DNA of 64,000 nucleotides from NCBI GenBank assembly GCA_963674595.2, contig CAXXFV010000008.1, forward strand, positions 224,001-288,000. Reading direction: 5' to 3'. A program made the translations under genes and the position numbers. The notes beneath the pieces were generated by a model. That model was not told the origin of the DNA. It made no database searches and worked only from the letters and a program-made list of their open reading frames with translations. This stretch comes from a bacterium (GTDB lineage: Bacteria; Zhuqueibacterota; Zhuqueibacteria; Residuimicrobiales; Krinioviventaceae). Positions 4,713-28,383 of the stretch are shown here, piece after piece. Position 1 is the stretch's first letter. Each line of letters starts with the position of its first letter.

Positions 4713-5302
4713 TATCTTTTGTCCGCGGCATATTGACTGAAAAAACTCCAACCGCTGTTGTTGTAGAAATGAACGGATTTGGACTGTCTGTTTATATTTC
4801 TTTATCTACATTTGAAAAATTGTCTGAAATTGGCGATCAAGTCTATCTGCATACTCATTTTCATGTACGTGAGGATGCGATGGCATTATACGGATTTTCT
4901 TCACTGGAGGAACGTGAGCTTTTTCTTTTCTTATTATCTGTTTCAGGAATTGGCCCAAAACTGGCAATGGGAATTTTATCCGGAAGCAAGGTAAGTGAGC
5001 TATATCAAGCCATTGCCGATGGCAATGAAACCCGTTTGACAAAGATTAAAGGACTGGGAAAAAAGACAGCACAGCGTTTAATTATAGAATTAAAGGACAA
5101 AGCTGAAAAAAGAGTTGGTGAAACTGATATTACTGCTCCCGCACATTCAATATCCGTCGGGATGTTTGATGAGGTCCTTATGGCTATGATGTCGTTGGGT
5201 TATTCAAAGGCAGAAGCGGAAAAGTCTATAGCAAAAGCAACCCAAACGCTGGGAAAAGTTGAATCTATTGAAGATTTGTTACGCACAGCGTTAAATAGTT
5301 GA
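4709..5302 (+). CDS. ruvA: Holliday junction branch migration protein RuvA
   Basis: [20 protein letters not shown] and GLGKKTAQR motifs. Confidence 0.97.
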
Positions 5303-10768: not shown

Positions 10769-10817
10769 CGCAATTTAAATATTGTGTAATTGCTCATATT
10801 TATCTGGAGGAAAAGTC

Positions 10818-12020
10818 ATGGCAAAGGCAAAGTTTGAGCGAACTAAGCCTCATGTGAACATAGGAACAATAGGTCACGTTGATCACGGCAAAACGACCTT
10901 GACAGCTGCAATGACAATGTTTTTGTCAAGCAAAGGTCAGGCGTCAGTAAAAAAGTATGATGAAATCGACAATGCGCCTGAAGAAAAGGCCCGAGGCATA
11001 ACGATAAATACGGCACACGTGGAATATGAAACAGATGCACGCCACTATGCGCACGTAGACTGTCCGGGACATGCTGATTATATTAAAAACATGATCACTG
11101 GAGCTGCGCAGATGGATGGAGCTGTATTGGTAGTATCTGCAGCAGACGGTCCGATGCCACAGACCCGTGAGCACATATTGCTGGCCCGTCAGGTGAATGT
11201 ACCTTCTATTGTTGTGTTTATGAACAAAACAGACCAGGTAGATGATCCTGAATTGTTGGAATTGGTAGAGTTGGAAGTTCGTGAACTGTTGAGTCAGTAT
11301 GAATTTCCTGGTGATGAGATTCCAATCGTTAAAGGTAGTGCTTTGGTAGCAATGGAAAAAGGTTTAGCCGGCTCATTGGAAGGTGAAGAATGGACTCCGA
11401 TCAAGGAGTTGTTGGATGCGATTGATTCTTATATCCCGACACCAACCCGTGACACAGACAAGCCGTTTTTAATGCCTGTTGAAGATGTTTTCTCGATTAC
11501 CGGTCGTGGAACAGTAGGAACCGGAAGAATTGAAAGAGGTATGGTCCATACTGGTGATGAAGTTGAGATCGTAGGACTTGGAGTACACCGTAAATCAGTT
11601 TGTACCGGCGTAGAGATGTTCCGCAAGATATTGGACGAAGGTCAGGCCGGAGACAATGTAGGTTTGTTGTTACGAGGTGTAGACAAGACAGAGTTGGAGC
11701 GTGGACAGGTTATATCCAAACCAGGCTCAATTACACCGCACACCAAGTTTGAAGGTGAAGTATACGTCCTGAGTAAAGAAGAAGGTGGTCGACACACCCC
11801 GTTTTTTAATGGCTATCGTCCACAGTTTTACTTTAGAACAACGGATGTAACAGGTAAAGTAGATTTACCTGAAGGAATAGAGATGGTAATGCCCGGCGAC
11901 AATGTAACGGTTACCGGCGAATTGATAACCCCGATAGCAATGGAAGAGGGACTACGATTCGCAATTCGAGAAGGTGGCCGAACAGTTGGTGCTGGTGTTG
12001 TAACTAAAGTTATTGAATAG
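10818..12020 (+). CDS. tuf: Elongation factor Tu (copy 1)
   Basis: [14 protein letters not shown] and NKTD motifs; ATG 10818 follows GGAGG and matches the start of copy 2. Confidence 0.99.
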
Positions 12021-19311: not shown

Positions 19312-22300
19312 TTGAATTTTATGACGTCACAAAGTTCGGCTTCTCAAAATACAAGATTTAGTTCGATTTATATTGGGTTGTCTTCTCCAGACAAAATTTT
19401 AGAAATGTCGCATGGCGAAGTAACCAAACCGGAAACCATCAACTATCGATCTTTCAAGCCGGAAAAAGATGGTCTTTTTTGTGAAAAAATATTTGGTCCG
19501 GTAAGGGACTGGGAATGTCACTGTGGTAAATACAAACGAATACGTTATAAAGGTATTGTTTGTGACCGCTGTGGTGTTGAAGTGACAATGAAAAGTGTGC
19601 GTCGTGAACGTATGGGACACATTACCCTGGCCGTTCCTGTCGTACATATTTGGTACTGGAAATCACTCCCTTCCAAAACCGGTTATATTCTTGGTATGAG
19701 TATGAAGGATTTGGAGCGTATTATCTACTACGAATCCTATGTTGTGCTCAGACCGGGTAAAAGTGGATATTTATATCAAGACCTGATAAGTGAAGACGAA
19801 TATCTTGATATAACCATGCAAATGGAAGAACTTGAAGCAGATGTTCCTGAAGAAGAACGTTTTAAAGCTGATATCGGTGGACGAGCTATTCTGGAACTTT
19901 TGAAAAATATTGATATTATCAGAATATCAAAAGAACTGCGTCAGGTGGTTAATAATGAAACTTCAGTACAACGAAAAACAGAAGCTTTAAAACGTCTTAA
20001 AGTTATTGAAGCTTTTCGTCGTGCGAATGAACTAAAAGAAAACAGACCCGAATGGATGGTTATGTCTGTTATTCCTGTTATACCACCTGAACTCCGACCT
20101 CTAGTACCTCTTGAAGGTGGTCGGTTTGCAACTTCAGATTTAAATGATTTATACAGACGTGTTATTATTCGTAATAATCGTTTGAAAAAACTGATGGAAA
20201 TTAAAGCTCCTGAAGTTATTCTTCGCAATGAAAAAAGAATGTTGCAGGAAGCTGTGGATTCTCTCTTCGATAACGGTCGAAAATCTTCCGCTGTCAGAAG
20301 CGACGGTAACAGAGCTTTAAAAAGTTTGTCAGACATGTTACGAGGAAAACAAGGTCGTTTTCGCCAAAACTTGTTAGGTAAGAGAATTGACTATTCCGGT
20401 CGTTCTGTTATTGTGGTTGGTCCTGAATTAAGACTTTTCGAGTGTGGACTGCCTAAAGAAATGGCTTTGGAATTATTCAAACCGTTTGTAATTAGGAAAC
20501 TCGTAGAACGAGGATTGGTTAAGACAGTAAAAAGTGCCAAAAAACAGGTTGAGAGAAGAGGCGCTGAAGTTTGGGACATACTCGAGGAGATCATTGAAGA
20601 TCATCCTGTAATGTTAAACCGTGCTCCTACGCTTCACAGGCTTGGTATTCAGGCTTTTCAACCGGTTTTAGTGGAAGGTAAAGCTATTCAAATCCACCCG
20701 CTTGTTTGTGCTGCATTTAATGCAGACTTTGATGGTGATCAGATGGCTGTTCATGTTCCGCTTTCTTTTTATGCCAGGATCGAAACCAAAGTTCTTATGC
20801 TTTCGAGCCATAATATCCTGTCACCGGCTCATGGCCGTCCATTAGCCATACCAAGTCAGGATATTGTTCTTGGTGTTTATTATCTTACAAAGAGAAGAAC
20901 CGGCGCTCTTGGCGATGGTATGATGTTCTCTTCAAGCGATGAAGTAAACATCGCTTATAACGATAATCGTGTTGAATTACATGCGCCCATCCAGGTTCGT
21001 ATTGATGGCAAAATGATCAGTACAACTGTTGGACGTGTTATATTTAATAAAATTCTGCCAAAAGAAATTGGTTATGTTAATGAACTTTTGACAAAAAAAG
21101 CAATAGAAGAACTTATCTCTAATGCTTATGTAAAAATTGGCAACTATCGTACTTCAATCATGCTGGACAGTCTAAAAGAGCTGGGATTTTATTTTGCGAT
21201 GAAATCCGGTGCGACTGTTGGAATTAATGATGTGATAGTACCTGATGAGAAAAATAAATTACTTGATGTTGCCTATAAAAATGTAGATGGCATTCAAAAA
21301 CGGTATGAACGTGGAATTATAACAGACGGTGAACGTTATAACCAGATTATCGATATCTGGACACACACCACCAGTAATGTCGCAGAACGAATGTTTGAGC
21401 GTTTGAAACAGGACCGCCAGGGATTTAATCCAATTTTTATGATGGCCGATTCCGGCGCACGAGGTTCTAAAGAACAGATCAGACAGTTAGCAGGTATGCG
21501 TGGTTTGATGGCTAAACCACAGAAAAAAATGACCGGTTCCATGGGTGAAATTATTGAAAACCCAATTACCGCCAACTTTCGTGAGGGTTTAACGGTGTTG
21601 GAATACTTTATTTCCACACACGGTGCCCGTAAAGGTTTGGCTGATACCGCATTAAAAACTGCTGATGCCGGGTATCTGACACGAAGACTTGTTGATGTTG
21701 CTCAGGATGTTATCATTACAGATCACGACTGTGGCACCATTTTAGGTTTACGGGTTGGTGACCTTAAAGAAGGTGAAGAAATTATCGAATCTATGCAGGA
21801 CCGAATTATTGGTCGTGTTTCTGCTGAAGATGTTTTTGATCCTGAAAGCGGTGATGTTATCATTGAAGCCGGTATGCTTATCGATGAAAAAATCGCTGAG
21901 ACAATTTCACATGCCGGTATAGAAAATGTTATGATTCGCAGTGTTCTAACCTGTGAAGCATCTCGCGGAGTTTGTGGCTTGTGTTATGGACGTAACCTGG
22001 CAACCGGTAAAATGGTTGTTGAAGGTGAAGCTGTGGGTGTTATGGCTGCACAATCAATCGGTGAGCCTGGTACCCAGTTGACATTACGTACATTCCACAT
22101 TGGTGGTACAGCATCTCGTATTGCCGCTCAATCTCAGGTTGCTATTAAACATGACGGAAAACTTGAATGGGACAACCTTAAAGTCGTTGAACGAGAGGAC
22201 GAAACTATAACCCTCGGTCGAAATGGACGTATTAAGGTCCTTGATGAAGATAACCGAATTATTGAACGACTAACAGTTCCCTATGGAGCCAATGTATTGG

Positions 22301-24033: not shown

Positions 24034-24504
<471 letters not shown>

Positions 24505-24520
24505 ATAAAGATTTTTATAT

Positions 24521-24702
24521 TGCCGGTCTTGCAGTCTAACTCCAATCAAATGAAGCTTAAAGACAGCTTGGCTGGAAAGTAGATGTTAAGAACTGGCACA
24601 ATGAAAACTGATAGATTACAAGTAGAAGCTACTTGGTAGAGTCGGTTGAGTGTTGTGTCAAATTCTTAAACTTTCAATCGATTTTAACAAGTGGCTTTTT
24701 TT
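24521..24702 (+). promoter_or_regulatory. Structured rpsG-fusA intergenic RNA (candidate cis-regulatory switch)
   Basis: Long hairpin at 24521-24598 plus two mutually exclusive hairpins at 24606-24647 and 24624-24699, paired by eye. Confidence 0.55.
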
Positions 24703-26787
24703 ATGTCTAAACCAGTAGAACTGGAAAAAACGCGAAATATCGGCATTATGGCTCACATAGATGCCGGCAAGACTACGACAACAGAGCGTATTCTGTTCTA
24801 TACTGGTATAGTGCATCGTATTGGCGAGGTGGATGAAGGTGCTGCAACTATGGATTGGATGCAGCAGGAAAAAGAGCGTGGAATTACTATTACGTCTGCC
24901 GCCATTACAGCCTCTTGGAAGAAATATCGAATTAATATTATTGATACACCCGGACATGTTGATTTTACGGCAGAAGTTGAAAGGTCTCTTAGAGTTCTTG
25001 ATGGTGCTGTAGCAATTTTTTGTGCAGTAGGAGGTGTTGAGCCTCAATCAGAAACTGTTTGGAGGCAAGCTGATAAATACCATGTGCCCAGAATTGCAAT
25101 CATTAACAAGATGGATCGAATTGGTGCTGATTTTTATGCAGCGGTTGAGTCTATTCGTAAGAAGCTGGGCGCCAGGCCTGTTCCTATACAACTGCCTGTT
25201 GGAGCATCTGACACTTTTTCAGGAATTATTGATTTAATAAAAATGAAAATGTTGGTGTTTAATGATGCTGAGTTGGGAGCAACGTGGGAAGAAGTTGATA
25301 TCCCTGGTAATATGGCCGAACAAGCGGATTTATATAGAAATAAACTTGTTGAGCAAGTTTCCGATTTTGATGATATAGTTTTAGAAAAATTTATCGGCGG
25401 TGAGCCGGTAACTGAGGAAGATATTCACCGTGGTCTCAGGGCGGGTACATTAAAGAATGAAATTGTCCCGATTCTGTGTGGTTCGGCTGTCAAGAATAAA
25501 GGTGTACAGCAACTGTTAGATGCTATCATCAATTATTTGCCCAGTCCAACAGACGTACCGGCTATAGAAGGACAAAATCCTTATACCGAAAAGACTGAAA
25601 AAAGAGAAGCCAAGCCGGATGAGCCCTTTGCAGCGCTTGCTTTTAAAATTGCAAGCGATGTTTATGTTGGCAAGTTGACATATATCAGAGTATACTCTGG
25701 CACACTGGAAGCTGGTGAAACAGCACTTAATATGACGTCTGGCAAGAGAGAGAGATTCGGAAGAATTTTGCAGATGTCATCAAATAAAAAGCAGGATATA
25801 CCGAAAATTTCTGCTGGAGATATTGTCGCCGTTGTAGGCCTTCGAGAAACCAAAACAGGCGATACTTTATGCGATCCAAAACATCAAATTGTTTTGGAAG
25901 ATATGGAGTTTCCTGTACCGGTTATATCTGTTGCCATTGAAGCAAAATCAAAAGCAGATGAAGACAGATTAGTAAATTCTCTTGAAATGCTTGCCAGTGA
26001 AGATCCTACGTTTCAGTTTTCTACAGACCCTGAAACAGGTCAAATGATTATTTCCGGTATGGGTGAGCTTCATTTGGATATTCTCGTTGACAGGTTGATG
26101 AGAGAGTTTAAAGTAAAGGCAAATGTTGGTCAACAACAGGTTGCCTATCGTGAAACGATAACAGAATCATCTGTAAGTGAGATTAAATTTGTTCGCCAAA
26201 CAGGCGGTAAAGGGCAATATGCTCATATAATAGTAGAATTTGAACCAACTGAACCTGGAAAAATTTTCGAATTTGAGAGTAAAATTAAAAACGGATCCAT
26301 TCCACGAGAATTTATTAAACCTGTTCAGGATGGTATTAAAGAAGGAATGGTTAGCGGTTCAATTGCAGGATTTCCGGTTATTGATATTAAAGCTACATTA
26401 ATTGATGGCTCATATCATGACGTTGATTCAACAGAATTGAGTTTTAAAATTGCCGGTTCAATGGCTATTCAGGATATTCTTCGTAAAGCAAAACCTATCT
26501 TGATGGAACCGATGATGGATTTGGAAGTTTTGACCCCTGAAGAGTATTTTGGTGCCATTTTAACCGACTTGGCCGCTCGAAGGGCCAAAGTTGAAGGACA
26601 TGAAAAGAAAAAAGATACCCAGCTAATTAAAGCGACAGTACCATTATCCGAGATGTTCGGATATGCAACCGGCCTTCGTAACACTTCTCAAGGCAGAGCA
26701 GTATTTTCAATGCAGTTTCAAAAATATACCAGAGTCAGTGAAGATATTGCTAAAAAGTTGCTCGAGAAAATGGGCTTAGCAGCATAG
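24703..26787 (+). CDS. fusA: Elongation factor G (somewhat divergent)
   Basis: [23 protein letters not shown] and GSYHDVDS motifs; ATG 24703 preferred to GTG 24691. Confidence 0.97.
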
Positions 26788-26829: not shown

Positions 26830-28032
26830 ATGGCAAAGGCAAAGTTTGAGCGAACTAAGCCTCATGTGAACATAGGAACAATAGGTCACGTTGATCACGG
26901 CAAAACGACCTTGACAGCTGCAATGACAATGTTTTTGTCAAGCAAGGGTCAGGCGTCAGTAAAAAAGTATGATGAAATCGACAATGCGCCTGAAGAAAAG
27001 GCCCGAGGCATAACGATAAATACGGCACACGTGGAATATGAAACAGATGCACGCCACTATGCGCACGTAGACTGTCCGGGACATGCTGATTATATTAAAA
27101 ACATGATCACTGGAGCTGCGCAGATGGATGGAGCTGTATTGGTAGTATCTGCAGCAGACGGTCCGATGCCACAGACCCGTGAGCACATATTGCTGGCCCG
27201 TCAGGTGAATGTACCTTCTATTGTTGTGTTTATGAACAAAACAGACCAGGTAGATGATCCTGAATTGTTGGAATTGGTAGAGTTGGAAGTTCGTGAACTG
27301 TTGAGTCAGTATGAATTTCCTGGTGATGAGATTCCAATCGTTAAAGGTAGTGCTTTGGTAGCAATGGAAAAAGGTTTAGCCGGCTCATTGGAAGGTGAAG
27401 AATGGACTCCGATCAAGGAGTTGTTGGATGCGATTGATTCTTATATCCCGACACCAACCCGTGACACAGACAAGCCGTTTTTAATGCCTGTTGAAGATGT
27501 TTTCTCGATTACCGGTCGTGGAACAGTAGGAACCGGAAGAATTGAAAGAGGTATGGTCCATACTGGTGATGAAGTTGAGATCGTAGGACTTGGAGTACAC
27601 CGTAAATCAGTTTGTACCGGCGTAGAGATGTTCCGCAAGATATTGGACGAAGGTCAGGCCGGAGACAATGTAGGTTTATTGTTACGAGGTGTAGACAAGA
27701 CAGAGTTGGAGCGTGGACAGGTTATATCTAAGCCAGGCTCAATTACACCGCACACCAAGTTTGAAGGTGAAGTATACGTCCTGAGTAAAGAAGAAGGTGG
27801 TCGACACACCCCGTTTTTTAATGGCTATCGTCCACAGTTTTACTTTAGAACGACGGATGTAACAGGTAAAGTAGATTTACCTGAAGGAATAGAGATGGTA
27901 ATGCCCGGCGACAATGTAACGGTTACCGGCGAATTGATAACCCCGATAGCAATGGAAGAGGGATTACGATTCGCAATTCGAGAAGGTGGCCGAACAGTTG
28001 GTGCTGGTGTTGTAACTAAAGTTATCGAATAG
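26830..28032 (+). CDS. tuf: Elongation factor Tu (copy 2)
   Basis: Protein identical to copy 1. Confidence 0.99.
26830..28032 (+). repeat. Near-identical 1.2-kb direct repeat of 10818-12020 (tuf duplication)
   Basis: About 7 synonymous differences found by eye. Confidence 0.95.
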
Positions 28033-28074: not shown

Positions 28075-28383
28075 ATGGCGGGCCAAAAAATTAGAATCAA
28101 ATTAAAGGCTTACGATCATCGGCTGATTGACAAATCTACTGAAAAGATTATTAAAACAGCAAAGCAGACTGGTGCTATGATTTCCGGACCCATTCCGCTA
28201 CCGACTAGACGGTCTGTTTACACTGTTCTCAAATCTCCGCATGTAGATAAAAAGTCCAGAGAGCAGTTTGAAACACGAATTCACAAAAGACTAGTTGATA
28301 TTCTCAACTCTTCTCCTAAAACGGTTGATGCATTAATGAAGCTTGAATTGCCTGCTGGTGTTGATGTTGAAATCAAAGTCTGA
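28075..28383 (+). CDS. rpsJ: 30S ribosomal protein S10
   Basis: [15 protein letters not shown] and SREQFE motifs. Confidence 0.99.

Follow-up and report, generated by a model that had tools for sequence, protein, structure and literature searches.

A conserved rpsG-fusA leader with two mutually exclusive folds, a candidate attenuator of elongation factor G synthesis in one order of an uncultured bacterial phylum

Why are the genes for ribosomal protein S7 (rpsG) and elongation factor G (EF-G, fusA) separated by a long and strongly folding spacer in an otherwise closely packed gene train? We examined this question in a stretch of 64,000 nucleotides (nt), referred to here as the window (contig CAXXFV010000008.1, positions 224,001 to 288,000, assembly GCA_963674595.2), from a bacterium of the Residuimicrobiales in the phylum Zhuqueibacterota. 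The rpsG gene, identified from the translation of its open reading frame (ORF), occupies 24034..24504 on the + strand (156 amino acids) and fusA occupies 24703..26787 on the same strand (694 amino acids counted from the AUG at 24703). With rpsG ending at 24504 and the fusA AUG at 24703, the gap between them is 198 nt (24505..24702, + strand). S7 homologues are 67-86% identical in every relative examined, and the alignment of EF-G with its relatives begins at residue 1. The answer that we favor, with slightly better than even confidence, is that the spacer is a conserved cis-acting leader or attenuator of fusA, composed of a sensor hairpin, an antiterminator and a terminator or sequestor. That it is an undescribed cis-element with two mutually exclusive folds appears well founded from the sequence comparisons described below.

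The spacer is the largest real gap of the rpoBC-str-S10-spc-alpha gene train in the window. Other gaps in the train are mostly 6-85 nt, and those beside the spacer measure 68, 34, 42, 42 and 51 nt, in agreement with the first-pass annotation of this DNA, which had singled out the gap for its length and proposed a two-state RNA switch within it. Folding of 24505-24720 with RNAfold gave -67.3 kcal/mol (z -5.27; none of 200 shuffles was as stable), and the minimum free energy (MFE) structure consists of hairpin A (24521-24598) and a long hairpin B (24624-24699). Hairpin A and all the pairings that the annotation had drawn for its first state, our hairpin B, were thus recovered. The sense strand is more stable than the antisense strand in 27 of the 31 spacers compared, by a mean margin of 8.9 kcal/mol. 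This strand specificity is due to the many G-U pairs, and the bias indicates that the structure is an RNA feature of the coding strand. The spacer occurs once in the 6.6-Mb assembly, by which a repeat of the repetitive extragenic palindromic (REP) or miniature inverted-repeat transposable element (MITE) type, or a mobile element, was ruled out.

Hairpin A (24521..24598, + strand; -23.7 kcal/mol folded alone) is the candidate sensor. It comprises a lowest stem, P1 (24522-25 with 24594-97), a second stem, P2 (about 24526-34 with 24583-93), and a third, P3, that begins with 24541-44 paired to 24573-76 and has a variable tip. The 5' strand of its internal loop (24535..24540, + strand) reads UCUAAC in the window and UCCAAC in most relatives, and the 3' strand (24577..24582, + strand) reads AAGUAG, or AAGUGG in one family. 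In the 31 genome copies, 94.9% of the cells are paired and 9 of the 16 modelled pairs have changed on both sides (48 cells), a covariation score that was reached by none of 500 shuffles. Sliding the partner by 1-3 columns reduced the pairing to 28-48% (maximum 48.5%). The alignment was fitted to the model and somewhat favors the structure for that reason, yet the slid controls, which retain the relatedness of the sequences, pair far less. Hairpin A is the most conserved part of the leader, and among 54 sequences, 47 of them distinct, its internal loop is almost invariant while its stems drift. The first-pass annotation had treated this hairpin as a bystander, a view that did not survive the comparison: it is likely to be the sensor. 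The covariation for which that annotation suggested looking in relatives is seen both here and in the base of hairpin B.

The few variants of the internal loop follow a pattern. UCCAAC/AAGUAG is the commonest form, one family has UCUAAC/AAGUGG, and the genome of the window has UCUAAC/AAGUAG followed by A. Alignment columns 20 (24537) and 111 (24581) change together, with C.A in 37, U.G in 9 and U-A in 1 (the window's genome) of the 47 distinct rows. In a register shifted by one base, columns 19:112 are C-G and columns 21:110 are A-U in 47 of 47 rows; since neither varies, these two pairs are uninformative on pairing. The internal loop may form an irregular helix with an isosteric wobble position, a suggestion and nothing firmer. 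The window differs from the family consensus at 24537 (C to U) and 24583 (U to A), and each change makes a Watson-Crick pair in the shifted register.

Three further observations concern hairpin A. The AAGUAG/AAGUGG of its loop (24577-24584) is nearly the same word as AAGUGG in the 3' base of hairpin B (24688-24695), and either word could pair with the CCACUU at the 5' base of B, which may be chance or may be a third pairing option. A 10-codon ATG ORF (24550-24582) lies in the variable tip of the hairpin and is absent from the relatives. A leader peptide was considered for the spacer as a whole and rejected, since 11 of the 31 spacers contain no ATG ORF of at least 8 codons and the positions in the remainder are inconsistent. 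Mimicry of 5S ribosomal RNA (rRNA) was likewise rejected, as the 5S-like strings in hairpin A score no better than shuffles.

Hairpin B (24624..24699, + strand; -4 to -79 relative to the fusA AUG) is terminator-like. Its helices pair 24624-35 with 24688-99 and 24637-50 with 24673-86 (12 + 14 base pairs, bp), and with 3 apical bp it reaches about 29 bp and -33.0 kcal/mol when folded alone. As annotated at first pass, the hairpin runs into a U7 tract (24696..24702, + strand) between its base and the AUG, which directly adjoins the tract and is itself unpaired. The base has the form C(C/U)AC...GUGG, and its first four pairs are kept in 31 of 31 spacers, the fourth varying from C-G to U-A or U-G. 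Over 12 gapless positions with the base as anchor, 84.4% of cells pair compared with 73.5% in shuffled alignments (0 of 500 reach the observed value), and 46 cells are changed on both sides where 15.5 are expected. The base is followed by a pyrimidine run (an optional C, then U) of 6 in one spacer, 7 in 24 and 8 in 6, and the AUG follows this run without a gap in all 31. A stable hairpin, a G+C-rich base and an immediate U-run are the marks of an intrinsic terminator, and B, which is simple and unbranched in this window, has all three. Hairpin-plus-U terminators are in use in this genome, where 18.7% of the T-runs that follow ORFs are preceded by a hairpin of -12 kcal/mol or lower, versus 3.7% for A-runs.

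The apical loop of B carries a semi-conserved motif. In many relatives (L011, L012, L022, L070 and L079 among them) it has a GCGUCA...UGACGC stem with the loop G(U/C)UCUUU-N-AC, and the window's copy (24654-24674) is degenerate. A boxA, or NusB-S10 site, was considered for this loop, using both the consensus GYUCUUUAANA (PMC5725501) and the organism's own rrn boxA, and rejected: the best match has 2-4 mismatches, with a mean of 2.84 over the 31 spacers versus 3.12 in shuffles. Two identical boxA-like sites, UGUUCUUUGAAAA, were seen on contig C3 of the window's genome, G000: one lies upstream of the 16S gene, at a distance of 74 nt, and the other in the 16S-23S spacer, 120 nt ahead of the 23S gene.

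The start of fusA is unusual for this organism. A Shine-Dalgarno (SD)-like motif is found at 47% of 2829 unambiguous starts versus 7% of control positions, with a G peak at -9, so the organism makes use of SD pairing. For fusA, the best duplex of positions -22..-3 with the 16S tail is -2.8 kcal/mol, which is background (control median -2.7 kcal/mol), and the genome median for real starts is -5.2 kcal/mol. The first-pass statement that fusA has no clear SD therefore stands. GUGG, in the base of B, was tried as a weak SD and rejected, its duplex energy being at background. A T7 abutting the ATG occurs in only 5 of 2829 other starts and a T6 in 14, none of them with a strong hairpin.

The second fold competes with B for its 5' arm. 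In this alternative hairpin (24599..24655, + strand; a candidate antiterminator or anti-sequestor), the linker 24599-24625 pairs with the 5' arm of B, 24629-24655. The pairs annotated for the second state, CAAGUAG (24619-25) with CUACUUG (24629-35) and AACUGAU with GUCGGUU, are present, and the hairpin folds alone at -15.4 kcal/mol; it is the fold of the nascent RNA before the 3' arm of B is made. MFE folding of linker plus arm gives 8-21 linker-arm pairs in 29 of 31 spacers (median -13.6 kcal/mol), which supplies the mutually exclusive upstream antiterminator expected of an attenuator. Between P1 of hairpin A and the start of the alternative hairpin the median distance is 1 nt, with 15 spacers at 0 nt, and on the arm the pairing takes in about positions 8-28.

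Comparison across genomes suggests that this pairing has been maintained. Against the first 30 nt of the 5' arm of B, the duplex formed by the linker beats those of shuffled linkers with a mean z of -2.06 over 30 spacers, 14 of which lie below -2. A linker also pairs preferentially with the arm of its own genome: ranked among 30 arms, the cognate one came third or higher in 19 of 30 spacers. When the full linker was used, same-genus arms were left out and ranks were summarized by genus, the median cognate rank was 3 or better in 11 of 18 genera versus 2 of 18 for a control with the 3' arm of B, which is about chance. The same cognate test on the flanks of hairpin A found no preference (median rank 17.5 of 30), a null result that validates the method; an outer helix joining these flanks, considered as a rival to the alternative hairpin, was rejected as not conserved (mean z +0.18). 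The contrast of the linker-arm signal with both controls is clear in these alignments despite the kinship of the genera. As the sequences of the two partners change from lineage to lineage, what is conserved is the pairing and not the sequence.

The element has a narrow distribution. The DNA of the region matches 17 of the 18 other genomes of the same family, and the spacer is 172-250 nt long in all 16 same-family genomes that have rpsG and fusA on one locus, a range that also holds for the related genomes of the order. An exact-match search for the core motif of hairpin A across 185,579 species genomes returned 14 stretches, all from metagenome-assembled genomes (MAGs) whose submitter labels are inconsistent (candidate division KSB1 for 4, Calditrichota for 2, 'Cytophagia' for 4, 'bacterium' for 3 and Actinomycetota for 1). 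To judge by these labels, the lineage may be KSB1-like. A covariance model of hairpin A, R1, was then used to search 151 genomes sampled across the phylum and matched 33 of them, at one locus each; the hairpin of the window scored 75.3 bits and was the one match in its genome. Not counting the window's genome, hairpin A is present in 31 of 36 genomes of the same order, in four families (14/16, 7/7, 9/12 and 1/1). Five genomes of the order have no match: in one, rpsG is cut by the contig end, two have no assembled rpsG, and a fourth (G015) has only a fusA-like match and no rpsG. Outside the order, 1 of 114 genomes of the phylum matches, weakly (E 0.003), and is one of 18 in a fifth family; none of the 96 genomes of 20 other families does.

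The gene context of hairpin A is fixed. All 31 genome copies lie between rpsG and fusA, including 15 of 15 additional loci. Metagenome contigs scanned with a looser exact pattern yielded 26 stretches, of which 23 have rpsG just upstream; the same 23 pass R1, and in the 21 cases where the contig reaches the downstream gene, that gene is fusA every time. The remaining 3 neither fold nor pass R1 and were set aside as chance matches. On this sequence evidence, hairpin A is a single-locus element specific to one order. Two irregularities were noted at these loci. The rpsG-fusA region occurs twice on contig C10 of genome G018 (4858-5231 and 20908-21281; L027 and L011), 16 kb apart and with identical scores, which is a duplication or an assembly artefact. 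Second fusA-like matches with no rpsG upstream were seen in G005, G004 and G015 (L037, L038 and L026) and are probably EF-G paralogues.

Our preferred reading of the leader as an attenuator of fusA builds on features that the data support directly, namely the structures, their conservation and covariation, their mutual exclusivity, the phyletic range and the fixed context; from these we infer the binding of a factor, the direction of regulation and the respective parts of termination and translation. The near-invariant loop of hairpin A (UCCAAC opposite AAGUAG) would be the recognition site for a trans-acting factor. A protein ligand is favored by the narrow distribution and the operon context, and in our view the factor is most likely a protein of the translation apparatus, the leading candidates being S7, encoded upstream, and a protein encoded downstream such as L4 or S10. 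During transcription, the linker and the 5' arm of B would form a modest hairpin first (about -14 kcal/mol) and block B. By default, this antiterminator would form, RNA polymerase would read through and ribosomes would load on the free U-rich leader. A factor bound to hairpin A, whose P1 abuts the first antiterminator pair, would cause the antiterminator to fail, so that B forms and fusA expression falls. The opposite sign of regulation is equally compatible with the sequence.

Hairpin B would be the OFF state in this scheme, acting as an intrinsic terminator and also occluding the U-rich initiation region that lacks an SD. An action on transcription is suggested by the G+C-rich base and the U-run of fixed length, and an action on translation by the position of the base, which at 7-8 nt from the AUG lies in the region needed for ribosome binding. 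We lean, if not strongly, to termination being part of the mechanism. By analogy, the layout is that of a kinetically controlled attenuator, in which completion of the antiterminator would decide whether B forms behind the polymerase. In this reading the leader would probably also control the tuf-S10 genes behind fusA, the first of which are tuf (26830-28032, + strand), after a 42-nt gap, and rpsJ (28075-28383, + strand), after another of 42 nt.

Several observations weigh against an attenuator of this kind. State 2 is about 21 kcal/mol weaker than B (-15.5 versus -36.4 kcal/mol), corresponding to an equilibrium fraction of about 1e-15, so that the switch could only be co-transcriptional (kinetic) or dependent on a factor. 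Of the two-state switch proposed at first pass, the mutually exclusive folds stand, together with a state-2 pairing that recurs with lineage-specific sequence; a switch at equilibrium does not. The nominal binomial p value of 5e-7 for the per-genus linker test is too optimistic, the genera being related. As an intrinsic terminator, B is atypical in being long, A+U-rich and rich in G-U pairs, and in relatives it spans 65-115 nt and is often branched; the compact stem of about 5-14 bp with a small loop that is usual for terminators is not what B presents, with about 29 bp and a 14-nt loop. A consensus terminator scan of the window does not flag B, because of that 14-nt apical loop. A strong terminator just before an essential and abundant gene would be costly. 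Finally, the likeness of hairpin A to rRNA, which might have pointed to a ribosomal protein, is at or near chance. The best of six comparisons, itself marginal, matches 14 of 16 bases of the 5' strand of A, with a 2-nt gap, to the helix 42 (h42) region of 16S rRNA, a score reached by 2 of 300 shuffles of the hairpin's own sequence and by 7 of 300 of the consensus; all other likenesses to the organism's 16S, 23S and 5S rRNA are at chance.

The genomes of sister families help in weighing these points. In seven genomes from other families of the class (L086-L092) the spacer is also long, 116-238 nt, and six of the seven have CUCCAC...GUGGAG (GUCC...GGAC in one variant), followed by U6-7 and directly by the AUG. 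The sister hairpin is terminator-like and carries in its 3' strand a GGAG SD at ideal spacing, hidden by pairing with CUCC. It therefore has the place and the end of hairpin B (CCAC/GUGG, U6-7, AUG directly) and differs in hiding an SD, in having no hairpin A and in showing no linker-arm complementarity. R1 has no match in the sister genomes, and the cognate test found no signal there, with ranks of 4, 2, 5, 1 and 3 of 5, although only five genomes entered it. These spacers carry further unaligned structure upstream of the hairpin. As the sister genomes lack both hairpin A and the linker-arm signal, hairpin A and the alternative hairpin appear to go together, and the SD-hiding hairpin suggests that control of initiation at this hairpin is ancestral. 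An old hairpin occluding the fusA initiation region would then have gained, in this order, a competing hairpin and the conserved hairpin A that abuts it, and the same order would have lost the SD of fusA.

The same sister hairpin also counts in favor of a constitutive element that senses nothing, which is unlikely in our estimate. Hairpin B would be a partial terminator, or a processing or stability hairpin for RNase III or RNase E, dividing the rpoBC-rpsL-rpsG transcript from the fusA-tuf transcript and shielding the ends so created; hairpin A would serve as an extra stability or processing module, and the linker-arm pairing would only guide folding. As a long, near-perfect duplex of about 29 bp, B is within the size range of RNase III substrates, a simpler hairpin without A stands at the same place in sister orders, and the comparisons with rRNA and boxA turned up no ligand. 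Such an element leaves unexplained why a competitor that disrupts B is kept up with lineage-specific sequence, why the loop of hairpin A is near-invariant in 47 distinct sequences beside drifting stems, and why hairpin A and the alternative hairpin occur jointly.

A more ambitious version of the attenuator, which we hold to be improbable in its full form, has hairpin A sensing the state of the translation apparatus, through free S7, EF-G itself or another factor encoded downstream. It would gate the entire fusA-tuf-S10-spc-alpha train by way of the kinetic antiterminator and terminator, and EF-G would be translated without an SD on a U7 leader exposed only in the ON fold.

Might the spacer instead encode a small RNA of about 180 nt, derived from the 3' untranslated region (UTR) of rpsG or from its own promoter, with B and U7 as its terminator and the loops of A and B as a seed or protein site acting in trans? 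A conserved hairpin followed by a hairpin with a U-run is the usual layout of small RNAs, the semi-conserved motif in the apical loop of B is otherwise unexplained, and a promoter-like site exists at 24493-24521, the sole consensus-like promoter found for the spacer. Transcription from that site would begin within the covarying P1 of hairpin A, however, and every copy of the element lies at this locus. In 31 of 31 spacers the U-run leads straight into the start codon of an essential gene, which places the element within the fusA leader whatever else its role. We regard a small RNA as very unlikely.

Fractionally less probable again is a metabolite riboswitch, with hairpin A as its aptamer, that would tune translational GTPases in response to, for instance, an alarmone or a guanine nucleotide. 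A hairpin with a conserved internal loop beside a terminator/antiterminator platform is a common riboswitch layout, and hairpin A with its platform has that layout; the downstream genes do encode GTPases. Yet no Rfam riboswitch family matches the window even at E up to 10, and the element is tied to one locus only. A distribution confined to one order is typical of protein-binding ribosomal leaders and not of central-metabolite riboswitches, according to Fu et al. 2013 (PMC3616713). Last, it is scarcely credible that the structure arose by chance or works at the DNA level (as a palindromic site bound by a protein, as a repeat or as the relic of a mobile element). Insertions can give long inverted repeats, but the spacer is single-copy, folds strand-specifically, covaries in both hairpins and is conserved across four families.

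Two remaining observations come from the window and from public data. A second tuf-like ORF (containing MAKAKF...) lies at about 10782-12020, upstream of the secE-nusG-rplK cluster, so that the genome carries two genes for elongation factor Tu (EF-Tu). In public RNA runs (two of RNA and one labelled RNA that is probably DNA), 7-12% of the sampled words were matched. The contigs obtained from these runs are short and mostly 90-95% alike, deriving from other organisms, and they cannot show transcript ends or read-through.

Is the leader a known RNA? Rfam covariance models gave only generic microRNA-precursor hits on the window, to hairpin B and far below gathering scores, and one spurious match among the loci of 14 relatives. 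No family matches, which bears out the undescribed status given to the element at first pass; rpsL leaders are presumably present among the Rfam families. A search of the accessible literature for a fusA leader, an rpsG-fusA element or a KSB1 riboswitch returned nothing beyond the cases in PMC2965389 and PMC2704228, and the latter describes a Pelagibacter rpsL motif that occasionally precedes fusA. Judged from sequence, the leader belongs to a known kind of RNA, the operon leader or attenuator of a translation gene cluster, and within it forms a new family not described before. It has what is asked of a ribosomal-protein leader, being a conserved structured RNA with covariation in a ribosomal-protein operon. 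A narrow distribution is typical of such leaders (Fu et al. 2013, PMC3616713). In all known cases the ligand is encoded by a regulated gene, according to Eckert and Weinberg 2020 (PMC7247131), whose main text makes no mention of S7, rpsG or EF-G.

The nearest counterpart by position is a streptococcal element reported in PMC2965389, which lies in the same operon and the same intergenic position and combines a T-stretch terminator with a proposed alternative antiterminator. The authors of that report discuss S7 as a possible partner and describe lineage-specific elements without common sequence; the leader elements share neither sequence nor structure across lineages. The likeness to our leader is one of position and kind only. 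Unlike the streptococcal element, the leader here has an extra conserved upstream hairpin, a much longer terminator-like hairpin, a U-run that touches the start codon, and no SD.

Three other systems provide useful comparisons. The kinetic platforms of riboswitches and T-boxes have a sensor helix abutting an antiterminator that shares a strand with a more stable terminator, and the outcome is decided during transcription. The present leader is alike in that a candidate sensor helix directly adjoins an antiterminator, and the 3' strand of this antiterminator doubles as the 5' strand of the terminator; it differs in having no known aptamer, a narrow distribution and a ligand that is more likely a protein. 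The S10 leader of E. coli, about 170-200 nt long, has an upstream hairpin needed for protein recognition and, close to the first gene, a terminator hairpin with a U-run. There L4 brings about NusA-dependent termination at a hairpin of the leader, and it blocks translation as well. Leader length and the succession of an upstream hairpin and a terminator-like hairpin with U-run before the gene are common to both, and here the S10 genes lie two genes downstream of the leader with gaps of only 42 nt. Our leader is unlike the S10 leader in matching it neither by sequence nor through Rfam, in standing before fusA instead of rpsJ, and in conserving an explicit competing antiterminator.

The third system concerns S7 itself. 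In E. coli, EF-G output follows from the action of S7 on the str operon. S7 acts on translation of that operon, and the rpsL-rpsG spacer holds its translational operator (Fu et al. 2013, PMC3616713). A structured str-operon RNA beside rpsG is common to both organisms, and many relatives carry in hairpin A the short strings that the same paper names as E. coli S7 contacts (CCA, UUGGA and UGUAA). The element described here follows rpsG instead of preceding it, the E. coli operator as described in the same source has no terminator, and the UU of UUGGA, cross-linked to S7 in E. coli, is not conserved in hairpin A. A search for the defining features of the E. coli operator (an rpsL-rpsG spacer location, a three-stem junction and CCA / UUGGR) did not find them, the UUGG part being variable. 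Between rpsL and rpsG there are 34 nt in the window and 11-49 nt across 24 loci from both the order and the sister families, a gap so short that no operator of the E. coli type is present at that position.

How bacteria other than E. coli control EF-G synthesis is poorly understood; in E. coli, it depends on coupling through S7. The rpsG-fusA leader, an RNA that can be aligned and is about 200 nt long, keeps a fixed context, contains a candidate binding site that is strongly conserved, and has the sister families as a built-in contrast. It is a candidate for a new Rfam family, and every part of it could be tested in vitro from sequence alone. If the wider gating of the gene train by the state of the translation apparatus were true, it would be the first feedback attenuator for an elongation factor, and an ancestral SD-hiding hairpin would have been rebuilt as a three-module switch. 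The leader thereby provides a testable system for how the output of translation factors and ribosomal proteins is balanced in an uncultured phylum, and for how leaders may evolve by the addition of modules.

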